UHGV virus genome: UHGV-1381253
DNA length: 43,188 nucleotides
Origin: a virus
Direction: 5' to 3' (one strand)
Shown here: in pieces, positions 5,116 to 33,783 of the stretch
Layout: the number at the start of each line of letters is the position of its first letter
How positions within the stretch are numbered: the stretch's first letter is position 1
The notes under the pieces: model-generated
Told to the model about the DNA's origin: nothing
What the model saw: the letters and a program-made list of their open reading frames with translations, nothing else
The model's database searches: none
Made by a program: the position numbers and the translations under genes

Positions 5116-6348
5116 TTATTCTCCTACACCTGGTACTACTGCAGTTGTATCAAGAGTTAAGAATTTACCTGCTGCTGCGTCTACTTTTTTAACGTCAAAA
5201 CGCATAGCTGCTGCTAGAATTTCTCCATAGTGTTGATGTTCTTGCCAGCGAACTGCCATTTCATTGCGGTCAAAGAATGATGTAAATCCAGCAGGATCAC
5301 CCAAGAATGCTACTTTTTTATTAGGAGCTCCTGATCCAGCTAACAATTTATCAGAAAGCACTGTTACGTTCAAACCAAGTAAAGATTTACCAGATTGAGC
5401 TGTAATTGAAGGTTGTAATAGGTAACGTCCTTCATTGTCTTTCATTAAGTCCACTTCATTGTAGAATGATTGAGAAACTACAAATTGTAAGTTGTATGCT
5501 GGGTCAAATTCAGTATTGATGATTGTTTTGATTTCATCCAAATTCTTAACTGTTTTAGCTGTTGCTGTTTTCAAGTTTTCAACAATTTTATAATTTGCTG
5601 TATTTAATGCAATGCGTTGAACATGACGTCCAATCAATGCTCCTAAGTCCTCATCTGAATCATCTAACGATTCACGAGAAACTGGAATTTGTCCACGATA
5701 AGTATCAACATCATACAATACATTTTCAAATTGTGGTTTGTCCAAATCTGGATTTGCTTCCAATTCAGCTACAGTGTGCATTACTGCTTCTGTTGATTTC
5801 AAAATAGGGTATTTGCCAGTTGGAGTGTTTACTTTCACTGTTTGAACTAAATTTCGTAAATCAACCACTGTTTCCGGTAACATTTTTGTTTTTGTAACAA
5901 TATCTTCAGGGATGATAGCACCAACATCAGTTGACTTTACACCTTCTGGAAGCGCTCGCAAGTCCATTTTAGGATTATGAGAACGTACATAATTTAAAAA
6001 TCCACGAACTTCTGTTTCTGGTTGAGCGATATCTTTTCCACCTAACACTACTTTTTCCATATTTTCTTCTTCTCCTTTTTGCTCTAATGAGCGTTTTTCT
6101 TCATCTTTTTGTTTTTTCTCTGGTTCTTTTTCTTCTTTTTTTTCTGGTTCTTGCTCTTTTGGTTCTTCTTTTTCGTCATCTTTTGTTTCTTCAACGGTTT
6201 TATCTTCGTCAGGCTTTTTGTCAGAAGCTTTTTTTTCTAACTCTTCTGCGTCTTGTTTTTTAATGGCTTCAACTAAACTACGTGCTTCTTCAAATTTGCC
6301 ATCTGACAATAAATCATGTGCCTTTTTGATTTGCTCTTCACGATTCAA
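5116..6348 (-). CDS. Major capsid protein (HK97 fold) with N-terminal charged delta/scaffold-like domain
   Basis: 410 aa. The N-terminal ~110 aa are extremely E/K-rich (EELEKKASDKKPDEDKTVEETKDDEKEEPKEQEPEKKEEKEPEKKQKDEEK). The C-terminal 300 aa are typical of an HK97-type capsid. Follows the prohead protease. Confidence 0.8.
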   Translation of the reverse strand: MNREEQIKKAHDLLSDGKFEEARSLVEAIKKQDAEELEKKASDKKPDEDKTVEETKDDEKEEPKEQEPEKKEEKEPEKKQKDEEKRSLEQKGEEENMEKVVLGGKDIAQPETEVRGFLNYVRSHNPKMDLRALPEGVKSTDVGAIIPEDIVTKTKMLPETVVDLRNLVQTVKVNTPTGKYPILKSTEAVMHTVAELEANPDLDKPQFENVLYDVDTYRGQIPVSRESLDDSDEDLGALIGRHVQRIALNTANYKIVENLKTATAKTVKNLDEIKTIINTEFDPAYNLQFVVSQSFYNEVDLMKDNEGRYLLQPSITAQSGKSLLGLNVTVLSDKLLAGSGAPNKKVAFLGDPAGFTSFFDRNEMAVRWQEHQHYGEILAAAMRFDVKKVDAAAGKFLTLDTTAVVPGVGE

Positions 6349-8391: not shown

Positions 8392-10164
8392 TTAGTATCC
8401 AAAACCAAACTCACCACTATCTAGTAAGTCTTGCAATGTTGGTGCGTCATAATCGTGATATTGAGCGTCACTCATGGCATTTATTATGGCGTCAAGTGAG
8501 TCAATTTTATTCCTGTTTATTTGCTTATCAATTGCAACGCTATCATTGTATTCTTTAATCATTGCATTGTATGCTGCACGATTCAATAAAGGGTTATTGG
8601 TGTGCATTACTTCACCTCTACGAATTAACTCACGCAGGGCTCTGGTTGGTGAAGATAAATAGTTAATTTTCTGTGGTACTTCAATTAGTTTTTTAGGGTA
8701 GGTTTTACTTAGATTAATCAAAGCCTTATCCATCATAAATGGATCATAATAAATACCAACCAATTGTAAGTCATTATAATCTATGAAATCACGTATCCAA
8801 TCACACATTTCTTCTGTATCAATTAAGCCATCTTCACGTTGTGAGATGTGAATGAGGTTCATTGCCTCATACTGTCTATAGGGTATTTTATCAATTGATT
8901 GTTTATGGTCTATACCTCCAACTGAAGACACAAAACCATGTGTATCTAATAATAGTTTGTGTTCTTCTTCTATTGGGATAATCCATGAAACGGCTGTCAT
9001 ATCTGATGTTCTTGCTAAGTCAATGCCAATATATACTTTTCTACCCTTAATATTATAATGATTGGGTGCTTTGACGGAATCCCACTCTTCTTTGGTTACA
9101 AAACTATCTTTAGATGATTGTACCCAAAAATTCATTTCTTTCGTTAACCAACCTGATAAATCCATTTTACCCTTGTATTCATCAAGTGAGTTGCGTTTAT
9201 GTTCCATCATTGAGTCGTATGCTTCTGGTATTTCAAACAGTGGGTTTGATTTAATCCAATTTTCTTCGTCATCTACTTCTGATAGACTATCCATTTCCCA
9301 GCAAAGAGCCAAATAAGCGTCACCTTTAACCTCTTCATTAAGTAATTTTTCAACGAATGGATATTCTACAGAGTGCATAGGCCCAGTTAGGTTTTTAGTA
9401 GTTGTTGAAATTATTAGTATTAATCCCTCTAATTGTTGAGATTGAGAGGATTCTAATACTTGAATAATTGCGTCATCTTTAGCTTCACCATATTCATCTA
9501 AAATACCGCATAATACATCTAGTCCATCAAGTGTATCAGCGTCACTTGATAGTGGTTTTACTGTTGATTCATCACTAGCTTCAATATCATATCTACGAAC
9601 AGTTGTTCTTTTTTTAACTTCTTTTGACACACTACGTAACGCAGTTAGCTGTGATTTGAGCATTCTGAAAACGATTCCTGCTTGCTCTTTTGTGTTTGCT
9701 GCTGCAACAACTTGACGACTGGCTGCTGGATTCTTACCAAACAAAAACTCATATAGTGCTATCCCTGAAACCAGTAACGACTTACCATTTTTACGTGCTA
9801 GTGAGATGTATGCTTTTCTAAAGCGTCTAGTATTATCTTTCTTTTTACGCCATCCATAGAGTAACCCAACAATAAATTTCTGAAAGTGGGCTAGTGTTGT
9901 GGTTTTGCGAGACTTAGGATCTGGAAGCATTTCAAGAAATCTAACTGGCGGTATTGCTTCCTCTGCCCTATAAATATATGGATATTTAGGGTCTTTTGAG
10001 CGTTCAATATCCTTCTGATGTCTTTCAATGGCTTTCTGTATTTTTTTACCAACTTTGATTTTAACTTTAATCGGTTTATAATAATCATCTTCTACTATAT
10101 ATTTACGTCCTTCAATCCATCCTGTTTCAATCAGATTGATATAATCTTGTACAAAGTCTTCCAT
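8392..10164 (-). CDS. terL: Terminase large subunit
   Basis: 590 aa. Walker A RKNGKS with the N-terminal ATPase domain, and a C-terminal nuclease region. Confidence 0.9.
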   Translation of the reverse strand: MEDFVQDYINLIETGWIEGRKYIVEDDYYKPIKVKIKVGKKIQKAIERHQKDIERSKDPKYPYIYRAEEAIPPVRFLEMLPDPKSRKTTTLAHFQKFIVGLLYGWRKKKDNTRRFRKAYISLARKNGKSLLVSGIALYEFLFGKNPAASRQVVAAANTKEQAGIVFRMLKSQLTALRSVSKEVKKRTTVRRYDIEASDESTVKPLSSDADTLDGLDVLCGILDEYGEAKDDAIIQVLESSQSQQLEGLILIISTTTKNLTGPMHSVEYPFVEKLLNEEVKGDAYLALCWEMDSLSEVDDEENWIKSNPLFEIPEAYDSMMEHKRNSLDEYKGKMDLSGWLTKEMNFWVQSSKDSFVTKEEWDSVKAPNHYNIKGRKVYIGIDLARTSDMTAVSWIIPIEEEHKLLLDTHGFVSSVGGIDHKQSIDKIPYRQYEAMNLIHISQREDGLIDTEEMCDWIRDFIDYNDLQLVGIYYDPFMMDKALINLSKTYPKKLIEVPQKINYLSSPTRALRELIRRGEVMHTNNPLLNRAAYNAMIKEYNDSVAIDKQINRNKIDSLDAIINAMSDAQYHDYDAPTLQDLLDSGEFGFGY

Positions 10165-10196
10165 TTATGTATCCTCCTTTTATACTATTCAATTAC

Positions 10197-10207
10197 ATTA
10201 TAGCATA
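10197..10207 (-). promoter_or_regulatory. Extended -10 promoter (TGcTATAAT) for terL, overlapping the upstream terminator U-tract
   Basis: Minus-strand sequence ttttttaTGCTATAATgtaattgaatagtataaaaggaggatacataaATG. Confidence 0.3.
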
Positions 10208-10239
10208 AAAAAGACTCCCTAGTTAGCTAGACTAGGGAG
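10205..10239 (-). terminator. Rho-independent terminator on the minus strand at the 3-prime end of the structured region
   Basis: Perfect 9-bp stem ctccctagt/actagggag with a 7-nt loop. It is followed on the minus strand by tcttttttat. Confidence 0.55.
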
Positions 10240-10299
10240 GTGTTAGTATCTGCTAGTATCCACGCCCTACGTTAAGTGGATACTAGCTTTATGTGTGCA

Positions 10300-10428
10300 C
10301 GTCATCAAATAGGGTCATACTATCACACTCTGCGCCAGATACTGTGGCGTGCGGTCGTTTACGTGCGCCGTTCACGACTGTTCAGTTTCCAACAGCAACC
10401 CTTTTTAACGTGGAGTGTGGTGAACCAC
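10300..10428. repeat. Copy A of the internal duplication inside the structured region
   Basis: Shares gtcatactatcac, ggtcgtttacgtgcgccgt, cacgactgttca and acagcaaccctttttaacgtggagtgtggtgaaccac with copy B. Confidence 0.8.
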
Positions 10429-10558
10429 GATTGCTCGCTGACGGTTAAGGTTTCCAACTCCGTCACAGTGCAAAGTATGGATACCGTCCCATACAGACCA
10501 ACGCTAGGCTAACCCGCCTGCGGGGGGACGTGAGTGACTAACTGCTTTGTCGTGCTTG

Positions 10559-10699
10559 TCGTCAAAGAGGGTCATACTATCACGCATTCGCTAGACACTA
10601 TAGCGAGCGGTCGTTTACGTGCGCCGTCCACGACTGTTCATTGGATATACAATGATATCCTAACAGCAACCCTTTTTATCGTGGAGTGTGGTGAACCAC
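10559..10699. repeat. Copy B of the internal duplication inside the structured region
   Basis: See copy A. One stem differs by a compensatory pair: cgcca/tggcg in A against cgcta/tagcg in B. Confidence 0.8.
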
Positions 10700-11025
10700 T
10701 GTGTGGTGTCCTACCTGGACAGATTCAGTATCAGGACTATGACGAGATAGCCAACGTTTCCTCTTAGGAGCTAAGGTTTCCAACTCTCCTAACGGTTGTT
10801 ACCCATAAGGTACTGACTGGAGTCAACGCTCTAAGTCGCAGCCAACGTTTTGTGTATGTCATTCTTTGAGGAATAAGAAATATACACTACCTTATATGTA
10901 CCGCTGTGAGCTAAGGTTTCCAACTCTCACACCGTTACTCATCAGAGTAAGTTTTAGCATCCCTCGCTTGCGGTGTCACGAGAGGTATTTTGTATGCCAC
11001 CTAACGCGAGTGAATAAATTATAAT

Positions 11026-12045
11026 TTAAAACTCACGTACCATAAACAACTTTTCGCACTTCTTGCCAACGTTAGCTCCTTGCATTGTAGATACCACGTT
11101 ATCAAAAGAATAAACACATTTGAATCTTTTATCTGATATCTCATAACTGCTTATGATAACCACGTTATCCTTAGCCATTTCATATGCCCAATCATAAAAT
11201 TCTTGGCTGTTGAACGATACACCGTAGGCATCGTGTGTATTTTCATATGGCGGGTCAAGATATAGAATAGCGTCTTTGACGTAAGAAAAGTCTTGATAAC
11301 TTAGGTTAGTTATAACTAGTTGTTCTAGTCGCTCTAGTCGCTCTACTTGGTGTAGCGGCTCTAGTTGCTTTAGTCGCCCTAGTTGCTGTAGTATCCTATG
11401 TTTCTCTGGTTTATCCTTAAAATCGGCAAAGTCATTGTTCTGGTTAGTTACGTTAGTTTTATAAGTTTCGGTTTGTTTATATCCGCTAAATACATCATGT
11501 TTTGCTATGATTTCTTTAGCTAAATTGTATTTTAATTCAGAATTTTGTTTTGAATATAGATAACCGCTACTATTATTTCCAAAACTGTTTATCAATAATT
11601 TTAAGTTGTCCGTGACGGTTTTTATTGCTTTTTCCTTAATCTCATAAAACTCATCACGGCTTATGATAAGGGTTTTAAGATAATCTCTATCGCTTTCTAG
11701 CACTTTGGTGAACATATCCGTTACATTCTTGTTTATATCGTTGTAATTGACTTCTAAGCCTTGTAACAAACACTCAGCAGTTATAGCCCCGCCGCCACCG
11801 AAGATGTCGTAAATTGTTTTGTCTGTTCCAAAGTTATCTTTGATAATTTGCACGATTTTCTTACTGATTTTCTTTTTTGAACCCACGTATGGAAGACCAA
11901 GAGCCTTACCTTTACGGACTGCTTTTTCGTTTAACTCTAGCAAAAAGTTGCCACCTCTCTTTTCCTTAATTGAAACAGTCAATCTGTTAATTATTATATC
12001 ACAAAATCCGACTTTTGTGATAATGGTGTATCTAATGTTTACCAC
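11026..12045 (-). CDS. DNA N6-adenine methyltransferase (Dam-like, D12 class)
   Basis: Motif X LPYVGSKKKISKKI, motif I DIFGGGGAI, motif IV YLDPPY, and the C-terminal VVIISSYE block. Located between terS and terL. Confidence 0.8.
   Translation of the reverse strand: MVNIRYTIITKVGFCDIIINRLTVSIKEKRGGNFLLELNEKAVRKGKALGLPYVGSKKKISKKIVQIIKDNFGTDKTIYDIFGGGGAITAECLLQGLEVNYNDINKNVTDMFTKVLESDRDYLKTLIISRDEFYEIKEKAIKTVTDNLKLLINSFGNNSSGYLYSKQNSELKYNLAKEIIAKHDVFSGYKQTETYKTNVTNQNNDFADFKDKPEKHRILQQLGRLKQLEPLHQVERLERLEQLVITNLSYQDFSYVKDAILYLDPPYENTHDAYGVSFNSQEFYDWAYEMAKDNVVIISSYEISDKRFKCVYSFDNVVSTMQGANVGKKCEKLFMVREF
11326..11406. repeat. In-frame tandem repeat, 9 bp x 9 units, inside the MTase TRD
   Basis: Units: ctagttgtt ctagtcgct ctagtcgct ctacttggt gtagcggct ctagttgct ttagtcgcc ctagttgct gtagtatcc. 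On the coding strand it encodes ILQ-QLG-RLK-QLE-PLH-QVE-RLE-RLE-QLV. Confidence 0.85.
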
Positions 12046-31962: not shown

Positions 31963-31991
31963 TTGACACCTCTTAACTGAGGTGTTATACT
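31963..31991 (+). promoter_or_regulatory. Promoter TTGACA-17-TATACT with the inverted repeat acacctc/gaggtgt in the spacer
   Basis: ttgaca cctcttaactgaggtgt tatact, then the leader taattcataaagttaaaggaggaagtaagg. Confidence 0.6.
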
Positions 31992-32024
31992 TAATTCATA
32001 AAGTTAAAGGAGGAAGTAAGGAAT

Positions 32025-32728
32025 ATGAGATATGTAGGAAGTAAAAACAGACTTAGTAAAGAATTAGCACCAATTATCCAAAGTTACATTACAGATGAAA
32101 CGGTGGCATATATTGAACCATTTGTAGGTGGCGCTAATATGATTGATAAAATTAACCACCATAATAAAATTGGTAGTGACATGCACAAGTATTTAATAGC
32201 ATTGCTAAATAAAGCAAGATATGACAAGGATAGTATTCCTGATATAATAGGTTTAGATTATCACTATTCAGTTAAGAAGAATATGGATGAATACCCTGAT
32301 TGGGAAGTTGGTCTAATAGGGTTCTGCAGTTGTTTTGGTGCAGATTTTATGAAGGGATACGCTAGAAACAAAAAAGGAGATAACAGTGGCGCATGGTCAG
32401 CTGGCGCTATTAAAAATTTAAAAAAGCAATCAGAATCTTTTAAAAATATTAAATTTGAATGCAAGTCATTTACTGATTATAATCCAAATAACTATAAAAA
32501 CTGTGTATTCTACTTAGATCCACCATACAGAGAAGTATACGGGTATTCAACTGGTGAATTTCCATATATAGAGAATTTGATGAATGGGCTATTAAATTGG
32601 CTAAAAACAATACTGTACTAATTAGTGAGTATACTATGCCAGAAGATAAATTTGAATGTATCTGGAGTAAAGATACAACGGTATCTATTACTAATCAAAA
32701 GGGTGCAAAAAATAAAAAAAAGAGTTGA
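32025..32728 (+). pseudogene. Second Dam-like N6-adenine MTase, disrupted by a frameshift near 32558-32578. ORF 32025-32621 plus the conserved C-terminus in the -1 frame to 32728.
   Basis: Motif X RYVGSKNRL, motif I EPFVGGANM and motif IV YLDPPY are in frame 0. The conserved C-terminus REFDEWAIKLAKNNTVLISEYTMPEDKFECIWSKDTTVSITNQ is in the frame ending TGA at 32726-32728. It aligns to EFYDWAYEMAKDNVVIISSYEISDKRFKCVYS of the first MTase. The shift lies at the catatatagagaattt run. Confidence 0.55.
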
Positions 32729-32766
32729 AAAATTATTTAAAGTACGCTAAGAGGAGGAATTTAAAA

Positions 32767-32988
32767 ATGATTAAAATTTATACTAAAAACAATTGTATGC
32801 CGTGCAAAATGACCAAGAACTGGCTCAAAGACAAAGGACATACATTTACTGAGGTGAATGTGGATGATAATCTAGAAGGTTTAAATGAATTACTTACTAT
32901 GAACCTGAAAACCCTACCTGTAATTTTTAAAGATGGTGAGTTCGTAAGTATGGGATTTGCACCAAATAAATGGGAAGAATTTAAATAA
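32767..32988 (+). CDS. NrdH / glutaredoxin-like redoxin
   Basis: MIKIYTKNNCMPCKMTKNWL carries a CxxC motif in the thioredoxin-fold position. 73 aa. RBS AAGAGGAGGAATTTAAAAATG. The track ORF starts earlier, at 32725. Confidence 0.55.
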   Translation: MIKIYTKNNCMPCKMTKNWLKDKGHTFTEVNVDDNLEGLNELLTMNLKTLPVIFKDGEFVSMGFAPNKWEEFK

Positions 32989-33740: not shown

Positions 33741-33783
33741 AAAACAAAAAAAAAAACCACTGGTCTAACCAGTGGTTTTTTAT
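33741..33783. terminator. Bidirectional rho-independent terminator at the convergence of the early and late arms
   Basis: A16 run, stem aaccactgg/ccagtggtt with a 5-nt loop, then a T7 run. Confidence 0.7.

Follow-up and report, generated by a model that had tools for sequence, protein, structure and literature searches.

A recent, twice-frameshifted adenine methylase gene, probably a genuine pseudogene, in an uncultured Enterococcus siphophage

Positions 32025-32750 of the window, as the whole 43,188-nucleotide stretch of DNA analysed here is called, hold a gene for an accessory D12-class (Dam-fold) N6-adenine DNA methyltransferase whose reading frame is broken at two places. I consider it about 80% probable that the locus is a genuine and very recent pseudogene that has been hit twice. 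A genuine pseudogene was one of four explanations listed in an earlier note on this DNA, and it is the one supported by the lesions, by their polarity and by the existence of intact alleles. The window itself is the circular 43.2-kb genome, with a G+C content of 35%, of an uncultured Enterococcus siphophage that is kin of IME-EFm5, RG1 and BUCT630. Its circular assembly follows from its length, which is what remains of megahit and JGI metagenome contigs after subtraction of the k-mer overlap at their ends (43307-119 and 43287-99). When both halves were compared with GenBank phages by megablast, only Enterococcus siphophages were matched, with 85-91% identity over 50-80% of the length, and no near-identical phage record was found. 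The main relatives are IME-EFm5, BUCT630, RG1, EF36P1-3 and KEN20/21, whose hosts are mostly E. faecium.

Three frame segments and two repeat-unit gains

The methylase locus extends over 32025-32750 in three frame segments, and not over 32025-32728 in two as the earlier note had described it. The features of the region, with the two insertions numbered as lesions 1 and 2, are as follows.

31963-31991, plus strand: promoter-like site upstream of the methylase gene (TTGACA, 17 nt, TG-TATACT), with 11 of 12 consensus matches
32007-32013, plus strand: ribosome-binding site AAGGAGG, read from the sequence, 11 nt before the ATG at 32025
32025-32567, plus strand: native methylase part in frame 0, codons 1-181, with motif X (YVGSKNRL), motif I (PFVGGAN), the target-recognition region and motif IV (DPPY), by PF02086
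32564-32569, plus strand: lesion 1, (AT)3 against (AT)2 in intact alleles, a gain of 2 nt that shifts reading to the -1 frame, by alignment
32568-32621, plus strand: out-of-frame tail of the 198-aa product, 17 junk codons (IENLMNGLLNWLKTILY) followed by TAA, by translation
32570-32720, plus strand: conserved C-terminal block, REFDEWAIKLAKNN...GAKNKK, in the -1 frame, where continued reading ends at TGA 32726-32728, by translation and alignment
32714-32721, plus strand: lesion 2, A8 against A7 in intact alleles, a gain of 1 nt that brings the remaining codons back to frame 0, by alignment
32721-32750, plus strand: last nine codons (RVEKLFKVR) and TAA (32748-32750), again in frame 0, the residues being nearly invariant in the family, by translation and alignment
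32767-32988, plus strand: intact glutaredoxin-like gene (PF00462), with synteny as in relatives

Translation bore out the original description of frame 0, which runs from ATG 32025 to TAA 32619-32621 and encodes a 198-aa product that contains YVGSKNRL, PFVGGAN and DPPY and belongs to PF02086. The native part of this product aligns with 100% coverage to intact relatives of 240 aa. The conserved C-terminal block had been placed in the -1 frame as far as 32728, and that frame does carry REFDEWAIKLAKNNTVLISEY..., reading REFDEWAIKLAKNNTVLISEYTMPEDKFECIWSKDTTVSITNQKGAKNKKKS* to TGA 32726-32728; the second lesion, in the A8 run, had been missed, however, so that the true end of the gene at 32750 was overlooked. 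At lesion 1 the window reads CC-ATATAT-AGAG where intact relatives read CC-ATAT-AGAG. This is a pure gain of one AT unit, and the T run that had been suspected of involvement plays no part in it. At lesion 2 the context is AAAAAAT-AAAAAAA[A]GAG, the bracketed A being extra in the window relative to the orthologues. The shifts do not cancel out, because translation in frame 0 meets its stop at 32619, after lesion 1 and before lesion 2. Once three nucleotides (AT plus A) are taken out, the gene encodes 240 aa that match the family over their whole length. Besides the two indels the window methylase displays no decay, and all family-invariant residues are retained.

The repaired protein scores 58.7 bits against PF02086 and the native 198-aa ORF 61 bits, for a cutoff of 22 (Pfam gathering threshold). 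The motif order is that of group alpha (X, I, target-recognition region, DPPY, C-terminal core), and YVGSKNRL, PFVGGAN and DPPY are invariant in the family alignments. No single uninterrupted frame covers the whole PF02086 domain, however, which is distributed over three segments and interrupted by the stop at 32619-32621. The locus counts as a pseudogene, and not as a functional member, of the D12-class family.

What the frameshifts remove was assessed on an AlphaFold model of the repaired protein (pLDDT 86.5, from a 104-sequence alignment), which replaced an earlier model, obtained from an 11-sequence alignment, that was too poor (pLDDT 56). In this model residues 181-240 consist of a helix (181-191) and the final three strands in the core sheet (196-201, 209-219 and 230-239); the conserved block in the -1 frame encodes the helix and part of these strands. 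Searched against the PDB with Foldseek, the model most resembles E. coli Dam, DpnM and T4 Dam (E 4e-10 to 1e-6, TM ~0.6), and the window protein shares with all three its DPPY catalytic motif and its AdoMet motifs at the N-terminus. Sequence identity to these proteins is only 11-19%, and the likeness to GATC methylases is one of fold. A search of solved structures by sequence, with this methylase and with the second one described below, gave no significant match (E ~0.4 to Dam and DpnM for the first).

Observed/expected ratios of GATC, CCAG and CTAG were considered as a proxy for specificity and rejected, being identical in the window and in IME-EFm5: for GATC the values are 0.48 and 0.47, and the IME-EFm5 methylase is free of the window's two frameshifts. 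Four other palindromes, CCGG, TCGA, GGCC and CGCG, occur in the window at 0.14-0.33 of expectation, the remaining 4-nt palindromes being at about 0.8-1.0.

The frame would have been broken by two independent replication-slippage insertions, the gain of AT just past the DPPY region and the gain of A in the 3' A7 run. The phage may still be able to transcribe the gene and to translate the 198-aa fragment, of which 181 residues are native. To judge from the model, this fragment, deprived of one helix and of three C-terminal core beta-strands, should be inactive. The promoter-like site at 31963-31991 is a consensus match only, the total of such sites across the scan not being above that in shuffles; the downstream genes for the glutaredoxin-like protein and the deoxynucleoside kinase are probably transcribed from it as well. 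The need of these two genes for them would probably account for the persistence of the promoter-like site and of the ribosome-binding site in front of a broken methylase gene.

The two pieces could conceivably still work together, the 198-aa N-terminal fragment assembling with a separate C-terminal fragment translated from the TTG at 32597 (32597-32728) to give a functional split enzyme. A 43-aa ORF with that TTG start is indeed present in the -1 frame. It is, however, preceded by no ribosome-binding site, its product would have neither helix 181-191 nor the invariant RVEKLFKVR strand, and the arrangement is unique to the window allele, all of which makes an active split enzyme exceedingly improbable. 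The locus is best annotated as one pseudogene, 32025-32750, with two frameshifts, rather than as a 198-aa 'methylase' and an orphan ORF, and this phage should not be credited, on its account, with an active anti-restriction function.

Intact relatives and the reality of the lesions

Searching with the repaired protein retrieved about 2,600 relatives of 237-249 aa, all of which aligned end to end. The orthologues aligned to the locus were those of RG1, KEN21, EF36P1 and IME-EFm5, together with P0001, P0002 and P0124. The query was covered to at least 80% in one place in 180 of the 182 matched records; all 19 Enterococcus phage matches listed, of 58, are full-length and in a single piece, except for a remnant in BUCT630; and the methylase is intact in 13 of 15 IMG/VR loci. 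Comparison of orthologues had been proposed as a way of finding out whether a two-ORF arrangement is common to them. The outcome was the opposite, the orthologues being intact rather than split.

The methylases of cultured phages are 63-78% identical to that of the window, whereas the nearest allele, P0124, is metagenomic. It is an intact protein of 240 aa, 98% identical to the repaired window protein and in the same 90%-identity cluster as the truncated product. P0124 comes from two unrelated runs, SRR21291543 and SRR23529654, and its gene lies in the order polymerase-methylase-glutaredoxin-kinase, as in the window. At the nucleotide level the window gene is the P0124 allele plus one AT unit (32564-32569) and one A (32714-32721). 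At both of its junctions, EFPYREFDEWAIK and GAKNKKRVEKLFKVR, the repaired protein matches P0124 exactly; the repair suggested at the outset for the first of them, the dropping of one AT unit, gives the sequence of this intact allele. In a sliding comparison with the P0124 locus (L012, from SRR21291543), 32229-32720 stands out as an island of about 500 nt with ~99% identity, in which at most 3 substitutions accompany the 2 indels, within a polymerase-to-kinase region of 88-95% identity. It follows from this contrast that the methylase segment was shared recently and that both insertions arose later. The sharing probably took place by recombination between phage lineages. The loss of an accessory phage methylase is documented here at the resolution of single events, two slippage insertions within a 500-nt segment of ~99% identity.

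One of the four explanations first listed was a sequencing or assembly error, the real genome having (AT)2 and A7 and an intact gene. Both sites are low-complexity repeats, which are prone to indels on some platforms. The exact 198-aa product was found on 5-8 contigs, in ENA (megahit k119), JGI and Logan assemblies, and in the four loci retrieved for comparison the sequence agrees with that of the window at 100%, lesions 1 and 2 among it; all assemblies give a single state of the tracts. Exact-pattern scans for the window allele, or for tract-length variants of it, gave 0 hits in IMG/VR and 0 in JGI metagenomes, where the window's own source appears not to be searchable, and so carry no information on variants. 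The allele has the same sequence on every contig that bears it, and a single phage population, or even a single data set, may be the common origin of these contigs, which could share the same reads. Nevertheless, at least three pipelines agree on the allele (megahit k119, with a k-mer multiplicity of 63, JGI and Logan). The megahit k119 names suggest short reads, a platform inferred from those names, and in short reads indels are rare at (AT)3 or A8. Moreover, two errors would have had to fall in one gene of 726 nt, with none elsewhere in 43 kb: when the ORFs of IME-EFm5 were compared with the window by tblastn, the methylase was the only real gene with a change of frame. Four runs of at least eight A or T occur in the window, namely two A8 runs in the capsid gene, both in frame, lesion 2 itself and one run in a terminator. 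The capsid runs (6136-6143 and 6229-6236, minus strand) serve as an internal control for homopolymer accuracy. An error is thus very unlikely.

Two of these regions deserve a brief description. The capsid gene, 5116-6348, has as its homologue the gene annotated as capsid in IME-EFm5. Its product carries at the N-terminus a Lys/Glu-rich extension of about 100 aa, and both in-frame A8 runs lie in the part of the gene that encodes this extension. The run-containing element at 33746-33781, between the convergent kinase and endolysin genes, has a 14-bp stem with A11/T-run arms and looks like a bidirectional intrinsic terminator.

If the lesions are real, the full-length methylase might still be made by programmed recoding, that is by a ribosomal frameshift or hop at UAUAUA together with slippage, transcriptional or translational, at A8. 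After slipping by +2 on UAU-AUA, a tRNA-Tyr could pair again, and there are known frameshifts in poly(A) tracts that find a partial rescue in transcriptional slippage (Baranov et al. 2005, PMC1088944; IS1447, PMC6211511), which A8 runs support in bacteria (PMC1088944) and for which seven As are enough in a Firmicute IS element (PMC6211511). Lesion 2, and the A8 and A9 alleles found elsewhere (see below), resemble these slippage-rescued tracts in being gains of one or two bases in A7 runs. Lesion 1, however, is not in a homopolymer; slippage at A8, which would repair lesion 2 only, therefore cannot restore the window protein. The frame-0 junction reads GAA TTT CCA TAT ATA GAG AAT, and only the unusual +2 re-pairing of tRNA-Tyr could bridge it. 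No canonical X XXY YYZ heptamer is present between the upstream stop of the -1 frame (the TGA in GGTGAA) and EFDEW, and no downstream RNA structure exceeds shuffled controls (z -0.43 for 32571-32660 and +1.12 for 32722-32800). Two events of low efficiency would in addition have to coincide on one mRNA and one ribosome. Finally, the two-frame arrangement is not conserved in orthologues, the nearest alleles, among them the one with 98% protein identity, being plain intact ORFs. Recoding, including the programmed -1 frameshift of the original list, is accordingly highly improbable.

The methylase is an accessory gene, one that this phage group can lose. It is absent between the polymerase and glutaredoxin genes in BUCT630 and IME-EFm1 and lies upstream of the polymerase gene in KEN21 and L014, and many family members in long metagenomic contigs are damaged by frameshifts, deletions or truncations. 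Because the methylase is dispensable in these phages, the first hit would not have been removed by selection, and the second would then have been neutral. On the other hand, no decay is seen beyond the two indels and the invariant residues are kept, so that the window methylase may retain some residual function or be reversible.

In other respects the gene resembles the orphan D12-class (group alpha) methylases of lytic siphophages of lactic acid bacteria and enterococci, examples of which are annotated 'DNA adenine methylase' in Enterococcus phages IME-EF4, LY0322 and KEN21. It shares with them PF02086, a length of 237-249 aa, the motif order and a position beside family-B DNA polymerase, glutaredoxin and deoxynucleoside kinase genes; unlike them, the window copy is broken by two insertions. 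A peculiarity of a different kind is found in IME-EFm5, whose 'DNA methylase' CDS (L001:1626-2570; KT588072 12420-13364) is 945 nt long. Near its 3' end this gene has one A fewer, reading AGGAGGAAA-T against AGGAGGAAAAT in RG1, as a result of which the stop is lost and the methylase is fused to the glutaredoxin-like gene. The fusion is either a further slippage event or an error in the record.

Recurrent poly(A) frameshifts in the gene family

Taken alone, the broken gene of the window is an ordinary finding, and wider interest attaches only to the recurrence of poly(A) frameshifts across the gene family. Damage in the family is concentrated at a tract in the codons for NLKKQ, which is A7 in the intact alleles of KEN21, P0001, P0002 and P0008. 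In the following alleles it is longer.

L014, 3385-3412: A8, the only defect
L015, 3385-3412: A8, the only defect
L029 and L030, 1885-1912: A8, the only defect, in two different metagenomes
L037, 1885-1913: A9, the only defect
L038 and L039, L038:1899-1906: A8, the only defect, in a distant homologue found on 8 contigs

The change from A7 to A8 or A9 thus breaks the gene in at least five alleles from other phage lineages and samples, one of them being a homologue of ~55% identity on a 110-kb contig. For L014, L015, L029 and L030, the four Enterococcus-phage alleles tested, the nearest intact allele has 97-99.6% protein identity. Further broken alleles have internal deletions or frameshifts outside the NLKKQ tract.

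These observations bear on whether the simple repeats of the family are reversible on/off switches, the window being a revertible 'off' variant of a phase-variable locus. Both lesions are unit gains in simple repeats, as a reversible switch would look, and the repeat lengths differ, (AT)2 against (AT)3 and A7 against A8, between alleles that are near-identical (~99% over 500 nt). That the NLKKQ tract, A7 when intact, is repeatedly A8 or A9 as the sole defect of broken alleles points in the same direction, as does the presence of the broken allele P0216 on 8 contigs. So does the comparison of L029 with L030: both have A8, yet they differ by 14 synonymous and 5 non-synonymous substitutions, a dN/dS of 0.08. 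This value was nevertheless rejected as a sign of retained function, since the differences lie in mosaic blocks when compared with the intact P0008, and recombination is an adequate explanation for it. In the window, reversion would need two events, one for each lesion, and a tract of three AT units is far too short for high-frequency switching, only A8, taken alone, being borderline for a single switch of that type. The deletions and non-repeat frameshifts of other members are what plain decay with mutational hot spots would produce. Lastly, AAA-AAA lysine codons are the default at 35% G+C, and the tracts need no selective explanation. Two lesions, of which one is in so short a tract, fit poorly with the simple on/off switch that had been proposed, and a phase-variable locus is unlikely.

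A broader form of the same idea is that the poly(A) tracts of the family (NLKKQ and the 3' KNKK) act as contingency tracts, or as transcriptional-slippage 'dimmers', of self-methylation, the window allele being an 'off' state with an extra AT slip. I regard this suggestion as improbable. If it were true, toggled self-methylation could be useful where hosts alternate between methylation-sensitive and methylation-dependent restriction, and variation of self-methylation via homopolymer tracts would bear on the prediction of host range for therapeutic Enterococcus phages. The hits in the tract, together with the other damage, are what is expected from mutation-prone tracts in a weakly selected gene, and they demonstrate no switch.

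The second methylase and the terS-terL spacer

The genome carries a second methylase gene, on the terminase side.

11026-11943, minus strand: second D12-class methylase, intact, 305 aa, with a TTG start and the ribosome-binding site GAGGTGG, by Pfam and full-length alignment

The ORF that contains it extends over 11026-12045, and its start is most likely the TTG at 11943. The gene is located between terS and the terS-terL spacer, and a methylase between terS and terL is absent in all the related Enterococcus phages that were compared. The statement of the earlier note that the C-terminal block of the first methylase can be aligned to the C-terminus of the second was correct, with 41% identity over the C-terminal 83 aa (E 2e-18); the rest of the two proteins gives no significant alignment.

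The relatives of the second methylase are methylases of Lactococcus, Streptococcus and Leuconostoc phages, with 62-64% identity. M.Phi15I (Phi15_36, AIK68570) is 61% identical over the full length of 305 aa (E 4e-104), and the best match in ASCC191 is AFE86771. Both belong to a single group in the study of Murphy et al. (2014, PMC4190342), where the motif CC6mAG/CY6mAG is tentatively given for it from SMRT data. That assignment is purely correlative, and at 61% identity the motif may be another. Judged by its sequence, the second methylase is a horizontally acquired member of the M.Phi15I/M.Phi93II subfamily. Its setting differs from that of the lactococcal 936-type genes M.Phi15I, M.Phi93II and M.Phi145II, which lie in the replication module, whereas the window gene lies between terS and terL of an Enterococcus phage. 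The notion of two Dam paralogues thus held in so far as both proteins are D12-class, and failed in that the terminase-side copy is not a close Dam paralogue but belongs to the M.Phi15I/M.Phi93II group (CCAG/CYAG assigned). The presence of several orphan methylases in one phage genome has already been described in 936-type phages (PMC4190342).

Being of a different D12 subfamily, the second methylase is not a backup or spare copy of Dam, and the subfamily comparison suggests that its target probably differs from that of the first. Redundancy between the two was considered as the main cause of the loss of the first and rejected, the subfamilies being different and the motifs probably so.

Between the AdoMet and DPPY regions of the second methylase (11290-11400, minus strand) are Leu/Gln/Glu-rich heptad-like repeats, LQQLGRLKQLEPLHQVERLERLEQL, and M.Phi15I has such repeats too, QLQQLQQLEQLQRL. 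In the window the run is encoded by imperfect direct DNA repeats and could vary in length.

The spacer that separates the second methylase from terL (10200-11025, described in the sense of the minus strand) is an ORF-free stretch of about 820 nt whose G+C content, 47-52%, contrasts with the 35% of the genome. Neither the whole window, at the gathering threshold, nor 10100-11100, at E<=1, matched any Rfam family. The spacer contains a module of about 260 nt that is tandemly duplicated (10295-10428 against 10552-10699, 88-97% identity), and three hairpins in which a 15-nt loop, AGTTGGAAACCTTAG, is conserved while the 5-bp stems covary (GTGAG/CTCAC, AGGAG/CTCCT and GACGG/CCGTC). A structured RNA and a packaging (cos/pac) element are both possible interpretations of this spacer. 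The same module is found in single copy in the unannotated terS-terL gap of IME-EFm5.
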